The position numbers and the translations under genes were made by a program. A stretch of DNA of 64,000 nt from the NCBI GenBank assembly GCA_951406725.2, contig OX597824.1, positions 86,552,001 to 86,616,000 of the forward strand. Direction: 5' to 3'. The stretch is from Octopus vulgaris. Lineage: Eukaryota. The notes under the pieces were generated by a model. It saw only the letters and a list, made by a program, of their open reading frames with translations. It did no database searches and was not told where the DNA came from. Below, piece after piece: positions 1,621 to 41,187 of this stretch (the first letter of the stretch is position 1; every line of letters starts with the position of its first letter).

Positions 1621-4600
1621 CTGAAATAAACAGAAAACAACAATATAAACGTTTTTGTATTGAGAGAGAGAAGGAAACAAAATGACAAGCAGTGTGTGTG
1701 TGTGTGCTTAAAGGGAGAGAATCGTTTCAAAATTTTTTTTTCCGTTTTCCCTTTTACTTGTTTCAGTCTTTAGAGCATGGCCATGCTGGAGCACCACCTT
1801 GAATGATCTTTTTTTAGTTGACTGAATCAACTCCAGTATTAATTTGTTTTTCTAAAACCTGATAGGCGCAGCTGTGTGGTAAGTAGCTTGCTAACCAACC
1901 ACATGGTTCTGGATTCAGTCCCACTGCGTGGCATCTTGGGCAAGTGTCTTCTACTATAGCCTCGGGCCGACCAAAGCCTTGTGAGTGGATTTGGTAGACG
2001 GAACTGAAAGAAGCCTATCGTGTATATATATGTGTATATATATGCGTGTGTGTGTCTGTCCCCCTAGCATTGCTTGACAACCGATGCTGGTGTGTTTATG
2101 TCCCCATAACTTAGCAGTTTGGCAAAAGAGAGGCCAATAGAATAAGTACTGGGCTTACAAAGAATAAGTCCCGGGGTCGAGTTGCTCGATTAAAAGCGGT
2201 GCTCCAGCATGGCCGTAGTCAAATGATCGAAACGAGTAAAGAGTATACTTATCCTATCAGTCTCTTTTGCTGAATTGCTAAGTTATGGGATACAAACACA
2301 CCAACACCGGTTGTCAAGTGGTGATTGGGGACAAATAGACCACAAAGACACACACGTGTCTGTGTGCGCGCGTGCATATGAATATATATATATATACAGT
2401 TGCGGCCAAAATGTTCGGAACGGTATTGTTTTCGTCAGAAAAGTAGGTATAATTTTTTATCAAAGTTGTTTTATAATCTATAATTTTCAGACAATAAATA
2501 CGACATTATTTGTTATTGTCTGAGATTTTGATGCAATTTGAGAGGATACTACAAAAGTTATGGATGATTTAGTGATTTACTGCAAAATCCATGGCGGCCA
2601 AAATGATCAGAACGGTTGACAAAATATGGCACCTAGGGCAATGTGTTTTCTTCTATAGCCTCGACCTGACCAAAGCCTTGTGAGTGGATTTGGTAGATGG
2701 AAACTGAAAGAAGCCCGTCGTATATATATATATATATTTCTTTACTACCCACAAGGGGCTAAACACAGAGAGGACAGACAAAGGGATTAAGTCAATTACA
2801 TCGACCCCAGTGCGTAACTGGTGCTTAATTTATCGACCTTGAAAGGATGAAAGGCAAAGTCGACCTCGGCGGAATTTGAACCCAGAACGTAACGGCAGAC
2901 GAAATATGGCCACGCATTTCAAAATAGCAGGTAGTTAATTAATCAGAGCAGAGAGATCAAAACTGAAGTGATTTTTGGCTTCAGTAACCCTAAATATACC
3001 CCAAAACAGGTCTAACCTCTAATGCATCAAAATTTAGGTACAACTTGGGGCCCCTAAATTTCAGTGCACTACAGGTTACATTAAGAGATAAAGGAGGCTG
3101 CTGTATCTACACAACTAGAAGTGATAGGATAAAATTGGTGATTTATATAGAATTAGAATTCAAAAGATAACCAAGAATATCTGAGACCCCTTCGGTCACG
3201 ACACAGACCATGGGATTGCACCTAGAAAGTTACCCTCACAGGCACAAGTCCAGGCAAGTTTGTTTATGGAAGACCAGTAGTCGCCCATGCATACTGGCCT
3301 CCCCTCTCCACGTCGCCAGTGTTATCCAAGGGAAAGGCAAAGGGGCCAATACAACTTGGCACCAGTGACGGTGCAACTCATTTCTACAGCTGAGTGAACT
3401 GGAGCAACGTGAAATAAAGTGTCTTGCTCAAGAACACAACATGCAGCTCGGTCCGGGATTCGAGCTCACAACCTCACGATCGTAAGCTCGATGCTCTAAC
3501 CACTGAGCCACGCGCCTCCAACTAAGAATATGTATGACCTGTAAGACACCAAAATATGTGCATCGGTGTCATTGTTATCAGATACATTTTATTATAACTA
3601 TTAAAAAACAAGACATTTCACAGAATAAAAAAATTGATGTGGAAAACAAAAACTAATGATTTTCAGATTTAGTATCCTGAAAGAAGTTAAAAGCAAGTCT
3701 CAGACCTAAATCAGAAAATAAAGTGCAGGTGTCACATAGGAGTACCAGTCCTGTGTAAAAGCACCTAGTACACTCTGCAAAGTGGTTGGCATTAGGAAAG
3801 GCATCCAGCCATAGAAACCAAGCCATGACAGACAAGGAACCTGAACAGCCCTTCAGCTGGTCAGCTCCTGCCAAATTGTCCAACCGATGCCAGCATGGAA
3901 AACAGAGGTTAAATGTGGATGATCATGACCATGTGTTATGTAGAGTCAACAATGCATAGCCAGTACTTATCTTTATATATAAAAGTCAAGTTGTGTGTCT
4001 GTCTCCTACGATTTAGATTCCTAACTACTTCCACATTTTGCAGTGCAGTTTAACCAAAACAGGGTATCTTATAGTCGTGATTCATATCGAACCCTTCTGG
4101 GTATTAGCGCGCATCTACGATTTAAAAAAAAATTTACCATCATTTTTTCCCATTTTAATGCATTTTTTCGCTATTATATAAGGGAAGTAACTCTCTAAAA
4201 ATGTCTACGATGAGTCAACGATTTAAAAAAAATTTACCATCATTTTTGTTGCATTTTTTGCTATTTTTTGGCTACAACTCTCTAAAAATGCTTATATAGT
4301 TATTTCCCTTACAAACCCGAGCAACACCAGGCGATACTGCTAGTTTGTCCTAAAATTTAAAAAAATAAACTCACCTATGGATTAAATCTTGTAAAGTTAT
4401 TTTAAAAGGTTCTTTTGGTTTCACCATATCAAATATTTCATCTCTAACGTCTTCAAATAGAATTGGCTCTTGTTTATGTCTTTTCATTTGTTCTTGAATA
4501 GCCTGAAAGAATTTAATTTGCATAACTAAACGTAAAACATACGACAAAAATTTAACTTAACTGCACAATACATTCATTTAACTTTTTAATCTCTCTATAT

Positions 4601-7600
4601 ATAAAGCTGAAGTTGTCTGTGTATGGCAGGTTTGGTAGCCTTCAACTAACACTATCTCCTCCGAGACCCTGCGGCGCAAGTTGACCAAAATTGAGAGTAT
4701 GATAGAAGAAGGCTTGTTCTTCCTTCCGTAGAAGAAAAAATTCAAATCGGACCATGTTAACACCAAAAATTATTTACATAAAAAAGATGCTTTTTTTCTA
4801 TGAAAATCTCTATTTTTTACGATCTTTTGACTGCTGTGTCGCTATTTTTCTGTGTATTTCAACCAGAAAAATGCTCGCTTAACAAGAATAACAAGCTACA
4901 TAATGCAAAATTTTTACTTTTCAAAAATTCCAATTCTAAAGGGTCGAAAAGAAAACAAGCCCGAGCAACGCCGGGCTATACTGCTAGTTAAATATATCCT
5001 TAGACTAGTTTTTTATGAGTATGTAACATACTCATCCAATAATTGTTAATTCTACTCAGTTCAGTTTAGACAGCTAAATAATCCTTTCTACTCTAGGCAC
5101 AAGGCCCAAAATTTTTGGGGAGGAGGCCAGTCGATTAGATCGACCCCTGTATGCAACTGATACTTAATTTATTGACCATGAAAGGCAAAGTCGACCTCGG
5201 CGGAATTTGAACTCAGAACGTGAAGACACAAAATACCGCTAAGCATTTCGCCCGGCATGCTAACATTTCTGCCAGCTCGCCGCCTTTAGGCACCTAAGTA
5301 ATGTTAATGTTCATTAGAGTCTATACACATCGAAATCTGTTAAATTCAAGTACAGTAGCACCTTGGTTTTCATACAACTCTAATCAGAAATAAATCATGC
5401 TTTATATATATATATTTATGTAAGACACAATTTATTCGTAATCAGAGTTGTCTGAAAACCAAGGTGCTACTGTATTTATGTACTTCTGTATCTATCTGCG
5501 GCTTTATATAGCTATGGTGCGACCTCACCTGGAATTTGCATCACCGGTCTGGAACCCCTATCTTGCCCAGGATATTAATCGTTTGCAAGCCGTTCAGCAA
5601 CGTGCAACCAAGAGAATACCCTCCATCAGGCATTTGCCATATTCTGAACGCCTTACTTCCCTGGGCATGGATACATTGAAACTCCGACGTCTGGCAGCTG
5701 ACTTGGCAGACACCCATAAAATTATTAACCATCTTACTAACAATAACTCTGAGCACCTTTTCAAACTCCACCTGTCTAACACCCATGGACATGTTTACAA
5801 AGTCAGAAAACAACATTTTTTCACGCTAAGAGTTGCTGAAGCATGGAACAAACTGCCGGCATCTGTTGTTAGTCGTTGGAGCACTGCATCCTTCAAAACT
5901 TCCATGCTTCCTGAGATTGGCCAACACTACACCTGATTTCCTCCCCTCCATACACACGCAAGCATGTATCTGACTCATACACTGTTCACTTCCCAGACAT
6001 TTGTACATTAATGCATTCGTTTTATATGCAGTTTTGACAAGTTGTGGTGCACCTGAGCACTGTATACAATAATTTCATTATTATTATACATACATACATC
6101 CTTCAAAAGTCGGAGCACTGCATCCTTCAAAACTTCCATGATTCCTGAGATTCGCCAACACTACACCTAATTTTTCTCCCCTCCATACACACACAAGCAT
6201 GTATCTGACTCATACACTGTTCACTTTCCAGACATTTGTACATTAATGCATATGTTTTATACGCACTTTTGACAAGTTGTGGTGCACCTGAGCACTGTAT
6301 ACAATAATTTCATTATTATTATCATTATTTTACATACATACATCCTTCAAAAGTCGGAGCACTGCATCCTTCAAAACTTCCATGATTCCTGAGATTCGCC
6401 AACACTACACCTGATTTTTCTCTCCTCCATACACACACAAGCATGTATCCAACTCATACACTGTTCACTTCCCAGACATTTGTACATTACTGCATATGCT
6501 TTATACGCACTTTTGACAAGTTGTGGTGCACCTGAGCACTGTATACAATAATTTCATTATTATTATTATTATTATTATTATTTGTAAACAGTTTTAGATT
6601 TTGTATTATATCTTTTATCTTTTGCTCGGACTCCTAAGGTCAGGTAACTGGCCTGAAGAGTCTTAGGGCACAAGAAAAAAGAAACCTATGAAAGAGTAGA
6701 CTGTATCTCAGGTAAACATTAGCACCTGAAGCCAAATCAATTCTGGCAGGAAGGATAAAACTGTGTACTTACTCGATAAAAATAATTAAGTGAGAATGTA
6801 TCAAGATAACCTTTCTGCTGTACGTCTAAAATACGAAAAAGGTACTGTAATGACTGAGGCTCTTTCCGGTTCTCCAGGGCTAAAACAAAATCAAGGTAAG
6901 TTTTGTAGTCCTGAAAAATAAATTAGAAATATTAGACTAATGAATCATTAAGTTTTGGAAAAAGGCTATTAAAGATATTTTTTGATATTCAATTAAAAAT
7001 TAGTGCTGGTGGCACGTAAAAAGCACCATCCGTTCGTGGCCATTGCCAGCCTCGCCTGGCCCTCATGCTGGTGGCATGTAAAAAGCACCATCCGATCATG
7101 GCATTTTGCCAGCCTCGTCTGGCACCTGTGCTGGTGGCACGTAAAAAGCACCCACTACACACATGGAGTGGTTGGCGTTAGGAAGGGCATCCAGCCGAAG
7201 AAACATTGCCAGATCAGACTGGGCCTGGTGCAGCCTCCAGGCTTCCCAGACCCCAGTTGAACCGTCCAACCCATGCTAGGATGGAAAGCGGAAGCTAAAA
7301 GATGATGATCATCATTATCATCATTAAATGTTCATTTTCTCTGCTGGACAGTTTGATAGGAGCTGGCAAGCCAGAGGACTGCACCGGGTCTCTTTAGTGG
7401 AATTGTTTCTATCGCAGGATGCCCTTCCTAATGCCAACCACTTTACAGAGTGCACCGGGTGCTATTCACATGGTACAGACCAAGATGCATTTTTACTTCA
7501 TGCTAGCACGGATGCTCTTCACATGGCACCAGCACGGGTGCCTTCTACACGGTGCTGACACAGGTGCATTTTAACATGGTACCAGCATGGGGTGCTTTTT

Positions 7601-10600: not shown

Positions 10601-11738
10601 ACCATCATCCTGAAATCTGATGTCATCATTTATTCCCATATCTCACTCTCTTACATGACACCCACTATTGATAATAAACAACTGTCACTCTCACCCAGCA
10701 CTCATCATTACTTCATACCACATATGCATAGCAACACGGCTGCCTGTCCTGCATTCTCATCTTATGTAAACAAATTGTTATTGCTTTTCTTTGGCCTCTG
10801 GTCAGCCTTAAGCAAGCTAGCATTTGAACAAAAGCGTTCCAATTGTGACCAACCCATCTTTTTTATTTCCAGAAAGTGCATTTTGGACCATATTATAAAA
10901 TGTGATCTTTTTTAAGATGTCAGAGTATGATCTGAAAGGAAATTCAGTTGCTATTTCCAGCAGTTGGAATGACTCTATAAAGGCTCAGTCATAACATAAT
11001 TTGAGGGATTTTGCGTTGCAAGTTACTTGGTAACCCTCCTGCTGCTGGTGCCACATAGAAAGCACACAGTACATTTTGTAAAGTGGATGACATTAGGAAG
11101 GGCATCCAGCCCTAGAAACCAGGCCGAAGCAGACACTAAAGCATGGCACAATCTTCTGTCAGCTCCTGTCAAACTGTCCAACCCATACCAGCTTGGAAGG
11201 AGAATGTTAAATGATGACGATGTAAACTGTCACTTATCTAAATTCTCTTGTTAGATCAGTGATAATTGATGCTAGTATGTGTTCTCTGCCAATCCAAACT
11301 TACCTCTAATAAATTATCAAGAAAACCACAGGCAAGGATATCCAGAATTTTAATCTTTCCAGTTCGCATAGGATCAAGGAAGAAAAAGAATTTTCTGACA
11401 GCAGTACACACGTAGAAGGAGTAAAAAGATCTTTCCAAGATATTCAACTGAAAAGAAATCAATATTTTGAAACCCAAAATAAGAAGATATATATGTGTGA
11501 ATATATATATATTTCTTTATTGCCCACAAGGGGCTAAACATAGAGGGGACAAACAAAGACAGACAAAGGGATTAAGTCGGTTACATCGACCCCAGTGCGT
11601 AACTGGTACTTCATTTATCGACCCTGAAAGGATGAAAGGCAAAGCCGACCTCGGCAGAATTTGAACTCAGAACATAACATCAGACGAAATACGGCTACGC
11701 ATTTCGCCCGGCATGCTAACGATTCTGCCAGCTAGCTG

Positions 11739-11782
<44 letters not shown>

Positions 11783-12672
11783 CAGAATTGAATAAACAAA
11801 TTTATTCTGCTTTATAATAATGAATTAATGGAGAAATTGTATCCTCACATAAGATATTTACAAAAAAATTGACAATTCATATGTTCAGTTCTATATTTAA
11901 GAGATGAGTAATTATGTACATTATTTATATTTGACGGATATTTGTCCCCATCTTGTTTGTTGTTAACACAACGTTTCATCTGATATACCCTCCAGCCTTC
12001 ATCAGGTGTCATGGGTAAATTTCAAACCTGGGTTTTCATTCCTAAGGTATTTTTCAATGTTATTGTTATTATTCAGGTCACTGCCTGGAATCGAACTCGG
12101 AATTTTGAGGTTAGTAGCCTACACTCTTAACCATTACGCCATGTGTCCAGGCATATGGTGTAGTGGTTAATTTATATGTTTCCTAACAAACTCAAATAAA
12201 AAATAACTACTGCATAAAATGGTTCTGTAGTTAAGGTCATTTTGCAAACTGTATGGCTACAGGTTCAGTCCTACTGCATGGCACCCAGAGTAAACAAATC
12301 TCGTTATAATTTTTTTTTTTTTTTAATTCATAATTGATCAACAAATCTTTTTTATCCATACTTTTAAACTAAGTACAAACATACAGAGAATATAAATGGT
12401 AATTTTAAAATATCCATAAAAATGTAGGCTACAGTAACTTATCATTTATCTTCTGCTTGCTTCAGTCACTGGACTGTGGCCATACTAGGGCAGCACCTTG
12501 AAGGGTTTAGTCAAACAAATCAACACCAGTACTTACCTTTTTAAGTCTGGTATTTCTTCTATTGGTCTTCTTTGCCAAACTGCTAAGTTACCGGGGCATA
12601 AATAAACCAATACTAGATGCCAAGTTTTGGGGATGGAGAACACAAATACATGCATATATATGTGTGTGGAAG

Positions 12673-12722
<50 letters not shown>

Positions 12723-13814
12723 GGACGCAATTGGCCAGTGTTTAGGGCAGCAGACTCGCGGTCGTAGGATCGCGGTTTCAATTTCTGGACCGGGCATTGT
12801 GAGTGTTTATTGAGCGAAAATACCTAAAGCGCCACGAGGCTCCAGCAGGGGGTGGTGGTGATCCCTGCTGTACTCTCACCACAACTTTCTCCCACTCTTT
12901 CTTCTGTTGGCCTGCTCACTTAGCCATTGGGGTGGCGTCATTTGAAGGCTAAAACAATGTGAAGCGCATTGTGACCAGCAATATGTAGCAACATCTGATA
13001 CCCTGGTCGGTCACAGTGATCATGGTGATATATATATATATATATATATATATGGTTTCTACACTGTTTCCATCTACCAGGTTCAATCACAAAGAATTAG
13101 TCAGCCTGAGGCTATAGCAGTAAACACTAGCCCAAGGTTCTGTGCAGTGGGACTGAACCTGAAATCATGTGGTTTCAAAGTGAGTTTTTTTTAACCACAC
13201 AGCCATGTCTGCACTTGTAAAAGAAAATTTCAAGACTTTTTCAATGTCGGTCACTCAGACTTTGACGAATTAGTGTCATCATCTGCTACTTTCAGAATGC
13301 ACCCCACTTTTAAACAAGAAATTAATTTTGTAGTACTTGTGTGTAAAAGTAGCTGCAAAAATAAAAAAAAAAAAAAAAAAAAAACAATATTTTACTAATA
13401 GATAATTTGTTTCCAGCCTCGTCTGGCACGTAAAAAGCACCCACTACACTCACGGAGTGGTTGGCGTTAGGAAGGGCATCCGGCCGTAGAAACATTGCCA
13501 GGTGAGACTGGGCCTGGTGCAGCCTTCTGGCTTCCCAGACCCCAGTTAAACCGTCCAACCCATGCTAGCATGGAAAGCGAACGATGATGATGATGATGAT
13601 GTGGAATGAAAAGCGAAGCCAATCTCAGAAGGATTTCAAGTCAGAATGAAAAACATACTCTGCTATTAACTGCTGATTATCTAACACCCTCAAACTATAA
13701 TTAGATAAGTTTCAGCCAGTATTGGCCGAGGTCATGTCTAAATATCATCACCTGGAAAACTCATTTAAAGGTGTTTCATACGAGTTGTTGTTTGGGCACC
13801 ATAGCCCATTCAAG

Positions 13815-13871
<57 letters not shown>

Positions 13872-16800
13872 AAAATAAGTCAAAATAGAAAATGCTAAAA
13901 TAATTTTATAAAGAACACTTCAGTACCGGTTTCGGTCATTTTGAGACCTTTTCAACTGTAATGATTAAATAATCAAATTTAGAAAAATTAAAAGAAATGT
14001 TTTTTTAAAGGAATATTCGTATAGTGTTCAAATATAAGTGGCATTTTCCTTGTTTCAGCCTTGCTCTGTCTCTCTTGTTCACACTTGTGGCATATATATA
14101 TATATATATATGCGCACACATGTATCATAAAACCATGTACAATCAATATAGCATTCCTGTTATATTAGATAACATGAAAATTATTAAGCATAGAAGTGTT
14201 ATTAATGCTTGAGCATTCTGATTACTCTATCAAATGTAATGCTTATTCATTCACATTGTTTTGAATTTGCCAGAACGCCGGACTGGCTCCTGTGCCCGTA
14301 GCATGTAAAAAGCACCATCCGATCGTGGCCGATGCCAGTGCCGTCTGACTGGCTCCCGTGCCGGTGGCACACAAAAAGCACCCGCTACACACTTGGGGTG
14401 GTTGGCATTAGGAAGGGCATCCAGCTGTAGAATCATTGCCAGAGCAGATTGGAGCCTGGTGCGGCCTCCTGGCTTGCCAGACCACAGTCAAACCGTCCAA
14501 CCCTTGCCAGCATGGAAAACAAACAAACGATGATGATGACTGTAGGACAGGTGTGAGAAGCTAGATCCAGTTTGTTTGAACATAAAAGATGGAATATCTG
14601 ATTCAGATAAAATGCTAATCCAGCCAAAATATTCCACCTTTTTCTTTTACTTGTTTCAGGCATTTGACTGCGACCATGCTGGAGCATCGCCTTTAGTCGA
14701 GCAAATCAACCCCAGGACTTATTCTTTGTAAGCCCAGTACTTATTCTATCTGTCTCTTTTGCCAAACCGCTAAGTGACGGGGACATAAACACACCAGCAT
14801 CGGTTGTCAAGCAATGCTAGGGGGACAAACACAGACACACAAACACATACACACACATACATATATATATGACAGGCTTCTTTCAGTTTCCATCTACCAA
14901 ATCCACTCACAAGGCATTGGTCGGCCCGGGGCTATAGCAGAAGACACTTGCCCAAGATGCCATGCAGTGGGACTGAACCCGGAACCATGTGGTTGGTTAG
15001 CAAGCTACTTACCACACAGCCACTCCTGCTTTCAAACCAACCAGATCCTCCCACTCACATCTACCCCCACACTGCCATCACATCATCAAAACCTCAAAAC
15101 TACAAAATACTAATGCAGGACAAATTCAAAACAATATGACTATATAATCATTACATTTGACAGAGTAATCAGAGTAATCAGTGCTAAAGGGTTAAAAAGT
15201 TAATTAAATGAAGAAGAGTTGTTATTTTTTAATATAGCTGTTAATAAACAAGCCATACATAAACATAAGAAATATTTGTTAAAGTATTGTTAAAGACTGT
15301 TAAATAATTTTGAAGAATAGAAGCTGAGATACAGAGGGAAGACAAGTATAACGAGATTTTTTTTAATGAAATAATTAAAACATGCTTTCCAAAATAACAA
15401 TGATAAAGTATATAGTATTACCAACATTTTTTATAAGGGCAAGGATAATTTTTTTTTTCTCAGTTGAAAACTTTAAAAGTTCTAAAACTTATTATTATTA
15501 TTAAGGGCACATGACATGGCTTAGTGTGAACTAATTTCAATTCCTAGACCAGGTGGTGCATTGTGTTCTTAAGCAAGACACTTCACTTCACATTGCTCTG
15601 CAATCATTTTGACACTTGACGTGTGGTACACAGTGCACCTGTTCAAACAACATTGATTTGATTGAGAGTGCAGCATGATTTGATTGAGAGTGCAGCATGA
15701 ACATTTGGTCACTATAAACAAATCATTTGTGCAGGTCATTCGGCAAAAGCCGAACGCTCATACATCGTCTTTACGGGAGAATCCGTCATTATTAATAACA
15801 ACACAAGAAATGCAGAGAAAATAGACGCTGTCAAATGCCATTGGGGATACATAGAAGTAGTTGATAGCTTTCATTATCTAGCTGTGGAGGTGGATGCTCT
15901 GAGAGCATAGCTGCTAGAATAAGAATAGGCTGGGCAAATTTGAGAGAGCTTCTACCTTTGTTGGTAACAAAGGGCCTCTCTCTCAGAGTGAAAGGCAGAT
16001 TGTATGATGCCTGTTTGCAAACAACCATGTTACATGGCAGTGAAGGGCTGTGACTGCAGAGGACATGCAAAGGCTTGAAAGAAATATAACTAGTACGTTT
16101 CACTGGATGTGCAATGTCAGTGTCCAGGTACAACAGCGTAGAAGCACCTTGAGAGAAAAATTGGGCAAAGCGGCATCAGAAAGTGATGTGCAAGGGAGAC
16201 AACTGCGCTAGTATGGTCATGTGATGCATATGTACGAGGACAGTTGCATAAAGAAGTGCTGATCGCCAACCATGTGGGGAACCTGGGGAAGAGGTAGACC
16301 CAGGAGGACTTGGGACAAGGTGGTGAAGTATGATCAGATTTTGAGATTCCACGAGGCACTGACAAGTGATCAAGACCTTTGGTGATTTGCTGTGCTGGAG
16401 AAGACTCATCAAGCCAAGTGAAATTGTAGTTGTGGCCAGTGCCAGTGACACATAAAAGCAATCATGCTGGTCACATGTAGGAGCAATCATGCTGGTCACA
16501 TGTAGGAGCACTCATGCCAGTGACACATATAAGGCATCCATGACACTCATGGAGTGGTTGACGTTAGGAAAGGGCAAGGAAACCAAACCAAATTCAGACT
16601 GCAATCTGGTGCAGCTCTCCAGGTTACTAGTTCCAGCCAAACCGTGTAACCCATGCCAGCATGGAAAGAAGATGCTAAATGATGATGATTATTATTGTAA
16701 TGCTAGCACTATGACCTGGTGTTGCCGGGTCATAGTGCTAGCACATACATATACAGCTGTGTGCGTGCGCACATACATGCGAGTACTGTCCAAATCTCCG

Positions 16801-19800
16801 GCCAATCACATACAGCTAGCTGGCATTCAATTGGCGTATCAAGTTTCGGGCATTTTGATTGGGTTTTGGATAGAAAATTCACAAAAAAAGTCACTTCTAT
16901 TGATTTTTTAATGGTTTTGCGGGGTGACTGGGTAAATGTAAAGATGTGCACGACCACCCTTGGACGGTTTTGAATGACCATAGAAAGTGCGAGCCCTCTA
17001 ACTGAAAAATTGTGGATTTGTATAAAGGACACACACACAAACAGACATTTTGCCGTTTATATATATAGAGATGACTTTTTATAGAATGATTATGAAACAC
17101 AGATATTTGTATTCCAATCACAATGGAAAAATTTATCTTGAACAAAGTAAGATAATTAATGATATTTTAAATAATAGTCCTCTCTGTAAAGTGGTTTGCA
17201 TCAGGGTGGGCATCCAGCTGTAAAAATCATGCCAAAAGAGACAGTGGAGCTTGGTGCAAGCTCCTATCAAACCATCCAGACCAATACCAGCATTGGAGAT
17301 GGACATTAAATCATAATGATGATGATGATATTTGTTTGTTTTACAATGTGGAGGCACATGGCCTAGTGGCTAAGGTGTCAAACTGGCAATTGTAAAATCA
17401 CAGTTTCATTTTCCAGATCAGGCAGTGTTGTGTTCCCTCTCTCTCTCTCTCTTTCAGAGAGGCACTGAGCAGCTATACGCACACATACACACACGGCAGG
17501 AACTTCCGCCTACCGAATTCAATCACAAAGCTTCGGTCGGCTCGGGGCTATAGTGGAATACACCTACCCAAAGTGCCACCCAGTGGGACTGAACCCGAAA
17601 CCATGTAACTAGGAAGCAAGCTCCCTAACCACACAGCCATGCCCCGTGAGTGAAAGGCATCATTTCATGTTGCTCCTGTCCACTCTACTATAAACGAACC
17701 CCAGTAATAGCTGGGGAGTTAAAACTGCAAGGGACAAGCCTCCTGTTCAGTGAGTAGTGCTGTAATCTCACTCGAGTCACTTAAAATGCCATTGAAACTG
17801 GATTAAGCCTCAGCTTTAACCCCTTCAGTCACTTTGGACAAATTTTCAGCATACATTACAAAAAAAATATAAATTATAATTAAGCTAAGTCACAGTGACC
17901 AATAGGTTGGACACCTCTAAAATGCATATATAACCAAGATCACAAGATTCTCATCCAGAGTTTGCTCACAAGTCATAGAGGATGGTTGTGTCTTCTCGTA
18001 AATCTCAGAGATGTTAAGTAAACTGGTTTTTACCACTTGGTGTTAACTAAATTTTTTTTATTTATCCATGACAAACAAATTAAACATACTGAATACTGAA
18101 TGCTTTAAAATGTAATCAATATGTGTTATTTACCTGTATTTTGGTATAAATAAAAAATTAAAATTAAAAATTAGTTTTATTTTTTTTATCCATGACTAAA
18201 GGGGTTAAGATTCCTAGGTCTCATGGAAAAAAATACTTTACAAATACAGAATCAATTGCTAAAGAATAGAATGTTGGGAAAAAATGTACCAGGAAATAAA
18301 ATACAATTGAAAAATAGAAGTTAAAAAGAAGGAGAAATAGACTTGTTCATAGTTAATATTTCAAAATTCAGAAATGACAGTTAACTATAAACATTGCAGT
18401 AGTATATAGCATTTGAAATGGAAATGTTTAAGGAAGAAACAGGATAGAAAATTGTGGTCAAAATATAGAAATGTGAAGTAATTCATTATACTTCCATTTT
18501 TTTTCTCCCCCTATATATTGGATTGTCCGGAAAGTTTGTGCCGATTATTAAAGGAAAGGAAAAGGTCAATAAATACTTGCCATTACATTTTTAATCAAGC
18601 AAGTATGAACCATTTTGTTGCACAATGCATCTCCATCTTTCCTTTAACTTGAAAATACCCTCTTCCCAGAATTGAGGTGCCTGGGAGGGGTAAGTCGAAA
18701 GGTCAGCTACTATAAATTGGCACAAACTTTCTGGACAACCCAATATAAGATATTCACAATCTGTCTCAACAAATTCTGTCTGATCCAGGATGCAAGCATG
18801 ACAGAATGGGTTAGATGATGATGGTGGTGGCGATGATGATGATGGTGGTGGTAGTAATGATGATGGTGGTGGTGGTAGTGATGATGGTGGTGGTGGTAGT
18901 GATGATGATGGTGGTGGTAGTAATGATGATGGTGGTGGTGGTAGTAATGATGATGGTGGTGGTGGTAGTAATGATGATGGTGGTGGTAGTGATGATGATG
19001 GTGGTGGTAGTGATGATGATGGTGGTGGTAGTGATGATGATGGTGGTGGTAGTGATGATGATGGTGGTGGTAGTGATGATGATGGTGGTGGTAGTGATGA
19101 TGATGGTGGTGGCGATGATGATGATGGTGGTGGTAGTAATGATGATGGTGGTGGTAGTGATGATGATGGTGGTGGTAGTGATGATGATGGTGGTGGTAGT
19201 GATGATGATGGTGGTGGTAGTAATGATGATGGTGGTGGCGATGATGATGATGGTGGTGGTAGTAATGATGATGGTGGTGGTAGTAATGATGATGGTGGTG
19301 GTAGTGATGATGATGGTGGTGGTAGTGATGAAGATGGTGGTGGTAGTGATGATGATGGTGGTGGTAGTGATGATGATGGTGGTGGTGGCGATGATGGTGG
19401 TGGTGATGATGGTGGTGGTGGTGGCGATGATGGTGGTGGTGGTGGCGATGATGGTGGTGGTGGTGGCGATGATGGTGGTGGTGGCGATGATGGTGGTGGT
19501 GGGGTGGTGACGATGATGATGATGGTGGTGGTAATGATGGTGGTGGTGGTGATGATATGATGGTGGGGTGGTGGTGGTGACGATGGTGGTGGCGATGATG
19601 ATGGAGCTGATGATTCACTCAACTATACTTCAATACGCAGCCTGAATAGTTCTACGCAAGTAATGTCTTTCTTTAGGGGGTGGGGTATTTCTTTGATATA
19701 TGAGGAGCAGTTATGATTGCAGGTTCAAGAAGTTTGCTACCCAACCACATGGTGTCATGTCCAATCCAACTGCATGGCACCTCTGTGACCTGTCAGTGAC

Positions 19801-20313
19801 AAACTACTTTTTCATTTGGTGTCCAAGAAGGGCAATCCAGCCATAGAAACCACACTGAAGCAGAGAGCAGAAGTTGGTTTCTATCCTCCGATTCACCAGT
19901 TCCTATCAACCCATCCAAGCATGGAAAGCAGATGTCATACAGTGATGACGATGTGATGATAATTTCAGTGCTATCCAAATTAGAATGTAGAGTCGACAAG
20001 ATGTGAGAAACAAGCAGAATCTGATATTTGAGAAGTTGTGATTAATTCGGTTATTATATTGTTGAATTTCTACAGAAAACTAAGCAAATATTTCTAAAAT
20101 AAAATATACTCTTTTACTTCTTTCGGTCATTTGACTGCGGCCATGCTGGAGCACCGCCTTTAATCGAGCAACTCGACCCCGGGACATATTCTTTTGTAAG
20201 CCCAGTACTTATTCTATCGGTCACTTTTGCCAAACTGCTAAGTTATGGGGACATAAACACACCAGCATCGGTTGTCAAGCAATGCTAGGGGGACAGACAC
20301 ACAAACACACACA

Positions 20314-20353
<40 letters not shown>

Positions 20354-23300
20354 TACGACAGGCTTCTTTCAGTTTCCGTCTACCAAATCCATTCACAAGG
20401 ATTTGGTCAGCCCAAGGCTATAGTAGAAGACACTTGCCCAAAGTTCCACGCAATGGGACTGAACCCAGAACCATGTGCTTGGTAAACAAGCTACTTACCA
20501 CACAGCCTCCTGCGACTATATATAACATATTCTTTTATTTTTTACTTGTTTTAGTCATTTGACAGTAGCCATGCTGGGGCACTGCCTTGAGGAGTTTTTT
20601 AGCCAAACAAATTGACCCCAGGAATTATTTTTTTAAGCGTAGTACTTATTCTATTGGTCTGTTTTGCTGAACTGCTAAGTTACAGGGACATAGAAACATC
20701 AACAACGGTTCTCAAGTGATGATTGTCAAGCACAGACACAAATAAACACACACACTTAAATATACATATATATATACAAGGGGCTTCTTTCGGTTTCCAT
20801 CTACCAAATCTACTCACAGGGCTTTAGTCGGCCTGAGGTTATACTAGAATGACACCTGCTCAAAGTGCCACTCTGTGGGACTGAAACCAGTACTATGAGG
20901 TTGAGAAGCAAGCTTCTTACCACACAGCCACGCATATTTTAGAATAGCAACTTTTCAAGATCCAAATGTTGCTTCATGGTTTAAGCAGTTTTATATACAC
21001 ACACACACACACACACAATTTGAACTCAGAACATAAAGACAGAGAAAATACTGCTAACAACTCTGCTACCTCACCACCCTATAAGAACAGATTAATATTA
21101 TGAGATTTATTGAAATTTCATTCCAAAGATAAATTCGTTTTAGAAATAATTTAAAATTTGTATAAAAGTATTTAAAAGGGTTTTACATACATATTTATAC
21201 ATACATACATAGTTATATATAAATAGTATAATAAATATTACACACACATATATGTATATATATAAATATTATAATAAATATTATATACACATATATGTAT
21301 GTATATATATATATATGTATGTATATATATATATATAAATACTATAATAAATATTATATATATATGTATATAAACACACAAATACATACACACAGAGGAA
21401 GAGAGAGAAATTGTTATAAAGTTTCAGGAGAAAGGACTGAAATAATAGTTCTTGGGGAGGATAAGAAAACAAGGTGTTTGTTCATAGAGAAAGGGATGAT
21501 GATCATCAGAATCAACCACTTACCCTATACCCTCCTTTAATAATCCAAGTATGGAGCTGGGAATTCTTCAAGAAATAAAGATATTTAAGATAAGGTTTTT
21601 TTTTAAATCCTTTTTGTTTTTGGAGGGGGTGTTTTTGTAATTTCTTTTCTTTGTCACCGAAAGAAATTGTTTACTCGTAAAATGACAATTTTCTTCAAAA
21701 TAAAATAATCCTTCCATGTCCATTAGAATGAAATAACACAAATAATTGGTTAAAATAACAACAATAAATGATACGAAATTTAAATGCTGGTCAGTTTTGA
21801 TGTCTTTCCTAAGGCCAAATCAAAAATGAAAAGTAGTGAATTTATATTCAAAAGAATAAACGTCTTAGTCGTGGGAGGATTGCTGGTGTGAGAGCTAGTT
21901 ATTAGTTACGGAATAAAATGATTTGGTGGCGATGGTGCCACATAAAAAGCACCCAGTACACTCTGTAAAGTGGTTGGTGTTAGGAAGGGCATCCAGCTGT
22001 AGAAACCATGCCACAAGAGACAATTGGACCCTGGACTGCTCCGCGGCTGGCCTTCTCCAGTCAAACTGTTCCTAGTATGGGAAACAAACATATGATGATG
22101 ATGCTGTTTGGACATTGATGAATTGGCACAGCAGACCGGACATTCAACTAGTTTTGGCAACCGTACTTTTATATGCTAGAAGCAAAAGCCATACATGTGC
22201 AGAAATATGTACAAATAGATAGAAAGAGATAGAGACGGAAGGAAGGAGTGAATGAGAGAAACATTAAATTGTCTCGTGTCAAATAAGTTAGTGTCAAATC
22301 AACAATGCCAAAACAGCTGTGCCAAAACGTCTCAAACCCTGTTAGCTAAGATTTCAAAATGTGATTGATCAATTTTTTTTCAGAATCTTATAAATTCTCA
22401 AATTGTATTAAAGATAGAGAAAACTGTAAATCTTTTAAATAAAAAAACATGCACCAAATATTAAAGAGTCAACTTACTCGTGGCAATGTTGGGATAAGTT
22501 CTAAAATGTAATTCTCTAGATCCTGCAGAAAAATACAAATGCAAAATTAATGTTAATTTTGTGGTTTCTTTGAAATCTTATTCTATAAATAGAGGAAAGT
22601 GATGAAAGCCACTTAATCCAAAACATTGAGAAAAGAAAAAGCAAGTAAAAAGCACCATCCGATCGTGGCCGTTGCCAGCCTCGCCTGGCCTCCGTGCTGG
22701 TGGCACATAAAAAGCACCATCCGATCGTGGCCGTATGCCAGCTTCGACTGGCATCTGGGCTGGTGGCACGTAATAAGCACCCATTACACTCACAGAGTGG
22801 TTGGCGTTAGGAAGGGCATCCCGCCTTAGAAACATTGCCAGATCAGACTGGGCCTGGTGCAGCCTTCTGGCTTCCCAGACCCCCGGTCGAACCGTCCAAC
22901 CCATACTAGCATGGAAAACGGACGTTAAACGATGACGGCAACATCTTTCAAATCCTTCAAACTTAATTATATATAGGCGCAGGAGTGGCTGTGTGGTAAG
23001 TAGCTTGTTTACCAACCAAATGGTTCCGGGTTCAGTGCCACTGCGTGGCACCTTGGGCAAGTGTCTTCTACTATAGCCTCGGGCCGACCAAAGCCTTGTG
23101 AGTGGATTTGGTAGATGGAAACTGAAAGATACCCGTCGTATATATGTATATATGTATGTATATATATATGTATATATATATATATATGCGTGTGTGTGTT
23201 TGTCCCCCTAGCATTGCTTGACAACCGATGCTGGTGTGTTTATGTCCCCGTTACTTAGCGGTTCGGCAAAAGAGAGACCGATAGAATAAGTACTGGGCTT

Positions 23301-33709: not shown

Positions 33710-34039
33710 TAATTTCTGTTGAGACTCAACGACGAATACCGTCGGTTTCTTCAGTAAGAAGTTAAATAATTCGGTTCATACGAGTGTCTGTCCATTATCT
33801 CCGCAGACGACAAACATCTTCCACCATCTTCGAATTTCCTTCCGACTAAATGAATTCTGATTGGCTGGCGATGAAGTCACGTGTCTACAGGAAGCTCGTG
33901 GCTTGTTTCTTTAATTGCAAAACATTTGTCCAGCGGATGTCTTCGGGATTTCGGCGACGCATTTACAAAAACCACTTTCCCTCGAACTTTGCCATTCAAA
34001 ATCGACACATATATAATATTTAATATTATTAAAACAACC
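33710..34039. promoter_or_regulatory. Bidirectional promoter shared by PPP2R3C and the sterol reductase
   Basis: 330-bp repeat-free, CpG-retaining gap between divergent ATGs. It holds a CCAAT box (ctgATTGGct, 33857-33866), an E-box GTCACGTG (33876-33883), an ETS-like CAGGAAG (about 33888-33894) and a YY1-like AAGATGG on the minus strand (about 33824-33830). Confidence 0.75.
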
Positions 34040-35335
34040 ATGGAAGCTTACAGAAACAACCGTGTAAATAAAAAAGGTGCCAACAAAACAGAAAAAACAA
34101 CTGATCTGGAATTTGGTGGCGTTTTGGGGACTGCAATAAACATTGTAGCTTTGCCATGCACCGTCATTATTATGAATCTCATGTGTAACGAACAAACGTG
34201 TAAATTCGGTCAGTTACCTTTCATTTATAACTGGTGGACGTATTTTGTCGATTGGACTGCAGTGTCGATGTTTTTATTTTGGATGATATTCCAATCTTTC
34301 TTGGCTATACTGCCTATTGGAAAATTGTACCAAGGTGTCCCATTAAGAGATGGGTCGCGACTTCAGTACAGATGCAACGGTTTCCTAGGTCTATTAATAT
34401 CTATATTTGCTTTTGTAGTTGCTGTCCACATGGGTTTCCCAGTTAGCATTATATACGACAAGTTTTTTCAAATGATGATATCTGCTTTAATTTTCAGTTA
34501 CATTTCGAGTGTTTTACTTTACGTAAGATCTTGGAAAGTTGCACCTTCAAAACTAGCTCCGAATGGAAACTCTGGGAATATTTTTTACGATTTCTTCATG
34601 GGACATGAACTCAACCCAAGGATCGGTTCTTTCGATTTGAAATTCTTTTGTGAGATGCGTCCAGGATTAATCGGTTGGGTTATTATTAACCTTAGTTTTG
34701 TCGTAAAATCCTATTTAGATAATTTTGGGCCATCACCTGCTCTCTTGCTTGTAACCATCTTCCAAGGCTTCTATATAGTCGATGCTTTATGGTTCGAAGA
34801 AGCTATATTAACCACTATAGATATGACCTCTGATGGGTTCGGTTTCATGTTGTGTTTTGGTGACCTCGTCTGGGTACCGTTTTTGTATACACTGCAGGGT
34901 AAATACCTTATGACGCAATCCCACAGCCTTCCGTGGTATATTTTAACTGCATTAACTGTCATAAACTGTATTGGTTACTTTATTTTCCGTTCAGCTAATT
35001 CCCAGAAAAATACATTTAGACGTGACCCCAAACATCCTTCGGTTGCGCATTTGCAAAGTATCGCCACTTCATTCCCCAATCGCCGATTATTAGTATCTGG
35101 ATGGTGGGGCATCTGCCAGAAACCTAACTATTTAGGAGACATTATTATGTCTCTCTGCTGGTCTTTGACTTGTGGGTTCGGAAGCATCCTTCCTTACTTT
35201 TACCCAATTTATTTAATCATTTTATTAATCCATCGTGAGAGACGAGATTCGGCTGCGTGTGAAAAGAAATATGGAAATAGCTGGAAGAAATATTGCAGTA
35301 AAGTGAAATATCGAATTATTCCTTATATATACTAA
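34040..35335 (+). CDS. Intronless Delta14-sterol reductase (ERG4/ERG24 family, TM7SF2/LBR-like), 431 aa, multi-pass membrane protein
   Basis: Motifs LEFGG, RLQYRCNG, GNIFYDFFMGHELNPRIGSFDLKFFCEMRPGLIGW, DGFGFMLCFGDLVWVPFLY, ANSQKNTFRRDP, LLVSGWWG...PNYLGD, LLIHRERRD...C.KKYG..WKKYC.KVKYRIIPYIY. The ATG at 34040 has a strong ACCATGG Kozak context; the listed ORF starts at an upstream GTG. There is no LBR Tudor/RS N-terminus, so the symbol is left blank. Confidence 0.95.
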   Translation: MEAYRNNRVNKKGANKTEKTTDLEFGGVLGTAINIVALPCTVIIMNLMCNEQTCKFGQLPFIYNWWTYFVDWTAVSMFLFWMIFQSFLAILPIGKLYQGVPLRDGSRLQYRCNGFLGLLISIFAFVVAVHMGFPVSIIYDKFFQMMISALIFSYISSVLLYVRSWKVAPSKLAPNGNSGNIFYDFFMGHELNPRIGSFDLKFFCEMRPGLIGWVIINLSFVVKSYLDNFGPSPALLLVTIFQGFYIVDALWFEEAILTTIDMTSDGFGFMLCFGDLVWVPFLYTLQGKYLMTQSHSLPWYILTALTVINCIGYFIFRSANSQKNTFRRDPKHPSVAHLQSIATSFPNRRLLVSGWWGICQKPNYLGDIIMSLCWSLTCGFGSILPYFYPIYLIILLIHRERRDSAACEKKYGNSWKKYCSKVKYRIIPYIY

Positions 35336-39547: not shown

Positions 39548-39903
39548 TACATTTTTTATGAATCAATGCAAGGCAATTTTTGCCTAATATTATAAAGCAC
39601 TGATTTTAATATCGTTATTTTTTTATCTGCCCTACACAATATTATTTATGCTAGGTTCAGATTTGAAAAGACTGCTTAATGACTTTCTGAAATACTTCCA
39701 ATACTGACTAGATTCTTAGAACCAAACATTCATATTAGTTTAATCTGCCGGAAGAAGCAAATGTTGTAATACTTTGTAATAGTGGATCAAATTTTATTTA
39801 ATATCATTTTGGGGGACAAAGATATATTTTTTCTAACCCATTAACTGCAAAATTAAATTTCATGGTTATTCCTGTAATGATGTTGAATATCTACCAAAAT
39901 ATA

Positions 39904-41187
39904 TTGGGTTGTCTGGAAAGTTCTTGCCGATTTTTAAAGGAAAGAAAAAGGTCAATAAATACTTGCCATTACATTTTTTATCAACCAAATATGAACCATT
40001 TTGTTGCACAATGCGTCTCCATCTTTCCTTTAACTTGAAAATACCCTTTTCCCAGAATCGTGGTGGTTTCATGGCAAAGAATTCATCAAGGTATCTTTTT
40101 ACGTCATCCAAGGAATTGAAATTTTTACCATTAAGACTATTCTGCAGAGACCTGAATAAGTGGAAATTCGAAAGAGCAATATCTGGTGAATATGGATGGT
40201 GGGGTAATACATCCCAGCCGAGCTGCAGCAATTTTTATCTGGTTCTCAAAGAAACGTGCAGTCTTGCATTATCATGTTGGAAAACAACACCCTTCCTATT
40301 GGCCAATTCTGGATATTTCTCTTGAATTGCTGCTTTTAACTTGTCCAGTTGTGTGCAGTATTTCTCAGAATTAATTGTCTGGTTACTTGGAAGAAGCTCA
40401 TAGTACAGAATTCCTTTCCAATCCCACCAGACACAAAGCAAGACTATTTTAGGGTCAAGACCCGCTTTTGGGGTGGCTAAGGGTGGCTCATGTTGCTTAC
40501 TCCAGGATATCTTTCTCTGAACATTTCAGTAGATAATCCATTTCTCATCACCTGTCACAATTTGCTTTAAAAAAGGTGCGTTTTGATTCCGTTTATAAAG
40601 CAAATCACAGATGGTAATGCAATCCAAAAGATTCTTCTCACTCGACTCATGTGGTACCCAAACATCATAGCGATTTGTGTACCCAAACTTTACCTGATGT
40701 TCATGAACAACGGATTTTGATAGGTTGAGGCTTTCTGCCAATTCTCGGGTTGTGCAATGTGGGTTATTCTCAATTAATGATTTGATTTGGTCATCATCTG
40801 TAGTGGATGGTCTACCTGATCACTCTTTATCAATAAGGCTACAATCTCCAGCTCGGAATCTTGCGAATCACTTCTGTAAAGTTCTTTCGGATAAAGAAAC
40901 ATCACCGTAAACTGCGCATATTTCTTTGGTTGCTTGTGAGGCATTTTTCCCTTTATGGAAAAAGAAAAGCATCAAGTGCCGGAAATGAACTTTCTTATCT
41001 TCCATTTTAAAGGGTTACAGAATTAACACAGGTTATAGGAACATAAAACTTCTTCCATGAAAAGATAGCTTAAACTGTGCTCTAAATGGAGGTGTAGTCA
41101 AATCCTATCTTATGGACTCAACCATGTTCTAAAATAAGTCAAAAGGTAAGCTACTATAAATCGGCACAAACTTTCTGGACAACCCAA
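39904..41187 (-). mobile_element. Full-length mariner (Tc1/mariner, DD34D) DNA transposon with a decayed transposase
   Basis: About 28-bp TIRs (TTGGGTTGTC.GGAAAGTT..TGCCGATTT) flanked by TA. The transposase runs from the ATG at 41005 with WVPHE, TGDEKW, QHDNARLH and PYSPDIA motifs, broken by stops and frameshifts. Confidence 0.95.

Follow-up and report, generated by a model that had tools for sequence, protein, structure and literature searches.

A 48-nt sequence in an octopus intron raises the question whether it is a ribozyme that acts on the transcript of its host gene, or a piece of a mobile element whose selective history lies elsewhere. The initial annotation of the 64-kb stretch of genomic DNA analyzed here (the window) described a minimal hammerhead with a compensatory U3-A8 core in sense orientation in intron 7 of PPP2R3C, next to a (TA)n run. 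It took the paired core change as a mark of selection on a working ribozyme and assigned the motif to a non-autonomous Penelope or retrozyme-like element. We consider it very probable that the motif is the hammerhead of the pLTR of a Neptune-like Penelope element, present here as a 222-bp truncated, (TA)n-flanked copy in PPP2R3C intron 7, and that on its own it cuts little or not at all.

A minimal hammerhead in the host intron

The motif is a minimal type I hammerhead with a U3-A8 core and is located at 13916..13963 on the minus strand, as judged from sequence, fold and covariation over 13 and 16 aligned element ends. Read along that strand, it is composed of the 5' arm of stem I (13963-13956), the core strand UUGAAAA from U3 to A9 (13949..13955), in which U3 (13955) is paired with A8 (13950), a 4-bp stem II (GGUC/GACC) with a 7-nt loop (13934..13948) followed by GAA, the palindromic stem III ACCGGU (13925..13930), A17 (13924) and the 3' arm of stem I (13923-13916). 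Sequence and self-duplex energy mark the palindrome as a predicted dimerization site, and cleavage is predicted 3' of GUA, at 13924/13923. The core boxes around stems I and II (the 3-8 pair, UGA-N-A, GAAA and UH) are present in the window copy, and the parse first given (stem I, UUGAAAA, 4-bp stem II, ACCGGU and GUA) is exact over 13963-13916 of the minus strand. The motif is thereby confirmed as a real hammerhead, as first described.

The predicted fold of the 48-mer contains stem II and a stem I with 7 of 8 pairs and one A-A mismatch; its energy (z = -1.71) was equalled by 12 of 200 shuffles, which makes it weak as evidence. The match to Rfam Hammerhead_HH9 is likewise weak (19.3 bits, E 0.16, gathering score 52), and no Rfam model matched the 64-kb window at its gathering score. 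A descriptor scan returned the motif as the single hit in the window; over 30 approximate dinucleotide shuffles there was one relaxed hit and no hit of equal strictness. The initial annotation had also proposed a search for further copies, and these proved abundant: genome-wide, 5,612 sites match the core pattern exactly, compared with 10 for the reversed control pattern.

The host gene was identified as PPP2R3C by an exon with 98% identity to a protein labeled Octopus PP2A B'' gamma, and all of its coding exons lie within the window. When protein P0001 was mapped, seven coding exons were placed upstream of the motif, which therefore lies in intron 7 (coding-exon count) on the sense strand, where the initial annotation had located it. 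This GT...AG intron spans 11,030 nt (11448..22477, minus strand), and its 3' splice site is ~2.5 kb from the motif. Exon 8 matches a 1,727-nt contig of run X1 (presumed RNA) exactly over 11304-11447.

Several other features occur in these surroundings. An uninterrupted 486-codon frame of the ERG4/ERG24 sterol reductase family (33875-35332, plus strand; E 3e-142) is arranged head to head with PPP2R3C, with ~170 bp between the start of the frame and the start codon. Located in or near PPP2R3C are a LINE-like 3' fragment (5442-5930, plus strand) and a mariner-like transposase fragment (about 39870-40230, minus strand), both labels being read off translations, as well as a long GAT/GGT triplet repeat (18800-19620).

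The repeat and its parent element

Similarity to genomic copies delimits the repeat that carries the hammerhead as a 222-bp 5'-truncated 3' end (pLTR) of a Neptune-like Penelope-like element (13869..14090, minus strand). Its 3' end abuts a (TA)n tract (13815..13868) that is taken as the target site, as most copies end in (TA)n, and a second (TA)n tract borders the truncated 5' end (14092..14111). An optional tail of ~35 nt, present in 9 of 30 loci, is missing from the window copy. A search of the 2.8-Gb genome with 171 bp around the motif gave 908 candidates, the best 40 of which have 96-100% identity; among the matches listed, the window copy is 96-97% identical to many genomic copies. Other copies share a common 3' end and have ragged 5' ends, and among the matches listed the longer ones continue on the 5' side until they enter a GIY-YIG frame.

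The main 3' end point of the copies falls on an internal (AT)4 of the element (L087:1301-1350; 3' ends of L002-L030), and the end point of the tail is AT-rich too. Given these AT-rich end points and the match of (AT)4 to (TA)n, microhomology with the target may play a part in priming.

A protein search of the genome yielded 12,164 candidates, and many of the 150 that were scored have frames of 784-785 residues. The frame of locus L087 contains RVT_1 (Pfam, E 2.7e-8), a CX4CxxC linker and a GIY-YIG domain whose score (E 3.7e-4) is just under the Pfam cut-off. CX4CxxC immediately precedes GIY-YIG in the RT-EN translations, a linker type common to Neptune and Nematis. The repeat of the window copy was found in 20 of 20 fetched loci with long RT-EN frames and the hammerhead in 19 of them, ~550-850 nt past the stop where it is downstream of the frame. 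Direct tandems among the fetched loci have units of 4,238-4,412 bp, and inverted truncated copies are present beside them.

Because copies share the repeat with RT-EN loci and show tandems, inverted copies, the tail and (TA)n, they derive from the tail of an autonomous element, not from a retrozyme. By these sequence relationships, the parent of the window copy is an autonomous Neptune-like Penelope element that was active recently, and the window copy is its truncated tail. A Penelope-type minimal hammerhead with a palindromic stem III, as first proposed, thus indeed sits in the pLTR of an element with RT and GIY-YIG; its description as non-autonomous and retrozyme-like gives way to that of a 5'-truncated 3' end.

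The parent element additionally encodes an ORF1 of 410-411 residues, which 16 of 30 loci carry intact. ORF1 and the RT frame overlap in -1 phase at U_UUU_UUA (L087:1375-2607 and 2547-4901), and ORF1 stops shortly past this slippery heptamer. The slippery site is kept in family C, and of 15 loci examined in other organisms, eight have U_UUU_UUR in -1 phase; besides L087, the overlap was noted in L154, L169-L172, L177, L181, L212 and L249. The other seven of the 15 comprise one with a different heptamer, three to four opening with a long single frame and two that are truncated or mis-anchored. ORF1 is homologous to two of the loci from other organisms (E 7e-35 and 3e-32). No ORF1 family was found in the Atlas, and a weak search among 2,520 candidates gave no ORF1 inside a longer single-frame protein. 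Past the slippery site, no stimulatory RNA structure was predicted in L087 (-1.8 kcal/mol) and a modest one in L154 (-13.0). The candidate -1 frameshift site is conserved, and frameshifting is predicted from it.

The family has the RT with C-terminal GIY-YIG, CX2-5CxxC linker, pLTR, tail, tandem and inverted copies and (TA)n target of Neptune elements. It has ORF1 and an RT-EN frame in -1 overlap in place of the single ORF of canonical Neptune, and we hence use the term ‘Neptune-like’. This putative clade assignment is based on domain layout.

Further elements were noted in the course of these searches. Retrozyme-like arrays elsewhere in the genome consist of ~359-360-bp tandems with a canonical CUGACGA core (G000:C1:20002278-20004542 and G000:C2:144931919-144933593). 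Another dispersed, diverged family combines a C3-G8 core and an ACCGGU stem III with a long stem II region (G000:C1:28431892-28431932, among many such places). Contigs binned in bacterial MAGs (L249-L257) contain Penelope-like RT-EN frames, some with hammerheads, and are likely animal host DNA.

The 3-8 pair, inserted copies and cutting

The 3-8 pair was U-A in eight, C-G in eight and unpaired in none of 16 aligned sequences, a set that leaves out relative L173 (U3-G8). Its covariation score over these rows was 0.84, compared with 0.21 when shuffled and 0.08-0.15 for slid partners, and 0.63 compared with 0.20 in the 13-row set; because rows were selected with a core-requiring motif and are mutually related, which inflates the shuffle test, these scores are not probabilities. 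Stems I and II covary across the aligned element ends as well. The closing pair of stem II is G-C, G-U or A-U depending on the subfamily, stem II is 2 bp long in families C and D, and relatives retain a stem III palindrome of different sequence (ACAUGU, ACGCGU, AACGUU). In the 16 sequences, U4, G5, A6, A9, G12, A13, A14, A15.1 and U16.1 are invariant and G does not occur at position 17. Selection on catalysis would produce this pattern, part of which is due to the search motif itself. Conservation of stems and core relative to the flanks, as expected by the initial annotation, is also seen among young copies: the window copy and three young subfamily copies, which are not mutually independent, have 0 differences in the 32-nt core, whereas elsewhere 20-22 of 179 columns differ.

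The U3-A8 core extends beyond the window copy's own family. In families C and D, UUGAAAA and GAAACCGGUA are retained alongside 2-bp stems II and unrelated 7-bp stems I that pair throughout; RT-EN identity is 49-60% in the comparison made, which was for family C. Among 17 related loci from other organisms, eight have C3-G8 in the same layout, one has U3-A8 (L253) and one U3-G8 (L173); the remaining seven, several of which are short contigs, gave no clear motif. In a tree built from C-terminal RT-EN sequence, without named references, the seven rows from the octopus genome form one clade (100/99) among C3-G8 relatives, and L253 is on a long, unplaced branch. On the simplest reading, U3-A8 would be ancestral to the families of this genome, following one switch in their ancestor.

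The exchange of U3-A8 for C3-G8 across related elements, with covarying stems, places selection in the transposon lineage and not in this intron; judged by this comparison, the 3-8 pair is compensatory and selected there. The claim that the paired C3U and G8A changes reflect selection on a ribozyme therefore stands for the element lineage (16/16 paired) but not for the intron. Nor are they a local change, as they are common to 3,319 of 3,381 anchored family copies and to the families with 49-60% RT-EN identity. The other anchored copies are 22 C3-A8, 38 U3-G8 and 2 C3-G8, so that among inserted copies loss of the pair (60 single changes) greatly outnumbers its exchange (2 double changes). Selected reversion to C3-G8 was considered and rejected: the two doubles, with ~0.3 expected from single rates, are too few, and copy ages differ. 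Family copies with C3-G8 are found in L103, L111 and L113, the inverted partner in L103 still being U3-A8; these are probably chance double mutations.

Compared with the commonest family form, the window copy has two differences in stem I, both pairing-compatible. Its G10.1-C11.1 pair is G-C (G-U, A-U or U-U in relatives), with no extra base between 9 and 10.1. No second hammerhead that could serve as a cis dimer partner was found in the 64-kb window by the descriptor scan. A 28-nt match at 15133-15160 was considered as a partner and discarded, as it is not a hammerhead. Family sequence occurs in run X1 contigs (presumed RNA), which are dominated by other copies. Domesticated hammerheads of the HH9/HH10 type are single-copy, and here thousands of near-identical copies exist. 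No sign of selection on the window copy, or of a role for it in the host pre-mRNA, was found, and on this analysis the lone copy is probably inert in PPP2R3C.

The element identity, copy number, insertion context, family-wide U3-A8 core and covariation form the documented part of the explanation that we prefer; its account of cutting is a proposal. A single Penelope-like minimal hammerhead is described as showing no cleavage and dimers little (PMC4209133), and the hammerhead of an Anolis Penelope-like element as cutting only with protein, with cutting dispensable for insertion in vitro (PMC11167929). In the octopus family, a stem III of one to two pairs would be unstable, and two copies pairing through the palindrome would give a stable one. 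In transcripts of element tandems (4.2-4.4-kb units), two hammerheads could pair via ACCGGU and cut slowly after GUA, probably aided by an element protein, and this slow, dimer- or protein-dependent cutting would be the activity kept by selection. Lunse et al. are said to have described dimer cleavage of Penelope-like hammerheads in 2017. The computed energy of the ACCGGU self-duplex is -8.3 kcal/mol; when two 70-nt copies were co-folded, this duplex was not the lowest-energy form, which counts against the dimer model.

None of 30 junction-spanning copies (examined out of 42 found, several from one insertion) starts at the cut site, and the shortest extends 78 nt further upstream. There is thus no genomic footprint of cutting, and insertion would use RNA that is intact at this position, either uncut or re-joined. 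Insertion would copy such site-intact RNA from a start ~55 nt 3' of the cut site, at the internal AU repeat.

The same observations could mean that the fold is kept for a non-catalytic job, e.g. as a protein-binding or dimerization signal near the start of reverse transcription, with cutting marginal even in the element. The lack of copies starting at the cut site, the tandems copied through intact sites and the unchanged insertion of an Anolis element with catalytic mutants (PMC11167929) agree with this, but catalytic positions are invariant over the 16 sequences, 3-8 swaps as a pair and 17 is never G (partly an effect of the search motif), and we regard this reading as unlikely. Membership in a non-autonomous retrozyme-like repeat has next to no likelihood: although the copy is short and non-coding, and true ~359-bp tandems with a C3-G8 core exist in the genome, the ragged 5' ends reach into the RT-EN frame and the only direct tandems seen have the 4.2-4.4-kb unit, not short non-coding units of 170-400 nt, each bearing a canonical type I hammerhead.

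We hold it to be very improbable that the window copy acts as a ribozyme from within the intron and influences the PPP2R3C pre-mRNA, whether as a monomer or paired in trans with transcripts of the element. It is in sense orientation within the intron, its core positions are all intact, its two stem I departures from the consensus still pair, family sequence is present in the run X1 contigs, and amniotes have domesticated intronic hammerheads (PMC6155905). However, it is a young repeat copy, 96-97% like its family, without a cis partner in the window and with a weak HH9 score; where the 3-8 pair has changed among 3,381 family copies, it has mostly been lost (60 singles, 2 doubles), and single Penelope-like minimal hammerheads are reported without cleavage (PMC4209133). 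As a long shot, the U3-A8 hammerhead might be a conditional switch, silent alone and turned on in trans by ACCGGU-paired element RNA or by a bound ORF1-RT-EN fusion made by -1 frameshifting. Sense intronic copies would then cut host pre-mRNAs only in transposon-active cells, and transposon activity would be coupled to host RNA processing at many genes. Under the preferred explanation, by contrast, there is nothing unusual about the locus, where a transposon remnant happens to lie in a long intron.

Relation to known hammerheads and Penelope-like elements

The U3-A8 swap is already known, including in Penelope-like elements, from the published accounts consulted (PMC3088659, PMC4209133). Perreault et al. 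2011 (PMC3088659) describe natural U3-A8 hammerheads with C3-G8 to U3-A8 covariation, stated to be active in vitro. The octopus family shares this covariation, and two-pair stems II and palindromic stem III dimers are also described there; many members of that set have a pseudoknot or loop contacts. Within amniotes, HH9 (RECK) and HH10 are, like the octopus motif, type I, intronic and on the sense strand (PMC3088659, PMC6155905). They are described as single-copy, deeply conserved and active as monomers with tertiary contacts, whereas the octopus motif is one young copy among thousands, with 19.3 bits compared with a gathering score of 52.

Comparable in setting are the minimal hammerheads of Penelope-like elements (Cervera and De la Pena 2014, PMC4209133), where U3-A8 is reported in ~1,300 minimal motifs linked to Schistosoma mansoni Cercyon elements. 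As in that account, the octopus hammerhead is located in the pLTR, has a palindromic 15.2-16.2 region and the U3-A8 swap, and occurs mostly in single scattered copies of truncated elements, with opposite-strand pairs 100-700 bp apart. The hammerheads described there typically have a G10.1-C11.1 pair, an extra base between 9 and 10.1 (after A9) and a stem II of 7-8 bp; stem II is 2-4 bp here, without the extra base. The host is an octopus, and U3-A8 is the dominant core. The word ‘Octopus’ is absent from the two supplement files of that paper that were searched, and the literature search, which covered running text and these two files, gave no paper on this octopus family.

The Anolis carolinensis element PAc (Poseidon; Frangieh et al. 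2024, PMC11167929) is similar in that two internal 3' end points define the tail and the hammerhead site is intact in inserted copies. PAc belongs to another clade and has a C3-G8 core; its reverse-transcription start site is reported to be unlike the target, whereas the first octopus end point, (AT)4, matches the (TA)n target.

As to the parent element, the likeness to Neptune EN+ elements (Craig et al. 2021, PMC8557442; PMC3846280) includes RT, the CX2-5CxxC linker, C-terminal GIY-YIG, a pLTR, a tail of 30-40 bp, partial tandems, inverted truncated copies and (TA)n targets. Canonical EN+ elements are described as single-ORF (PMC8557442), unlike the octopus family, in which a 411-aa ORF1 and the RT frame overlap at U_UUU_UUA. 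In the passages of text searched, no frameshifted EN+ element was reported; Fig. 1 of PMC8557442 marks ORF1 and a frameshift for some types of Penelope-like elements. This conserved two-frame layout is the more unusual feature of the parent element. The role of hammerheads in endonuclease-bearing Penelope elements is stated to be an open question in the PMC8557442 preprint. The octopus family is a clean case for selection keeping a hammerhead core in elements, though inserted copies have no cutting footprint, and with copies that are young and number in the thousands, coding elements that are intact and a natural change from C3-G8 to U3-A8 that can be placed on the element tree, it provides a useful test bed.
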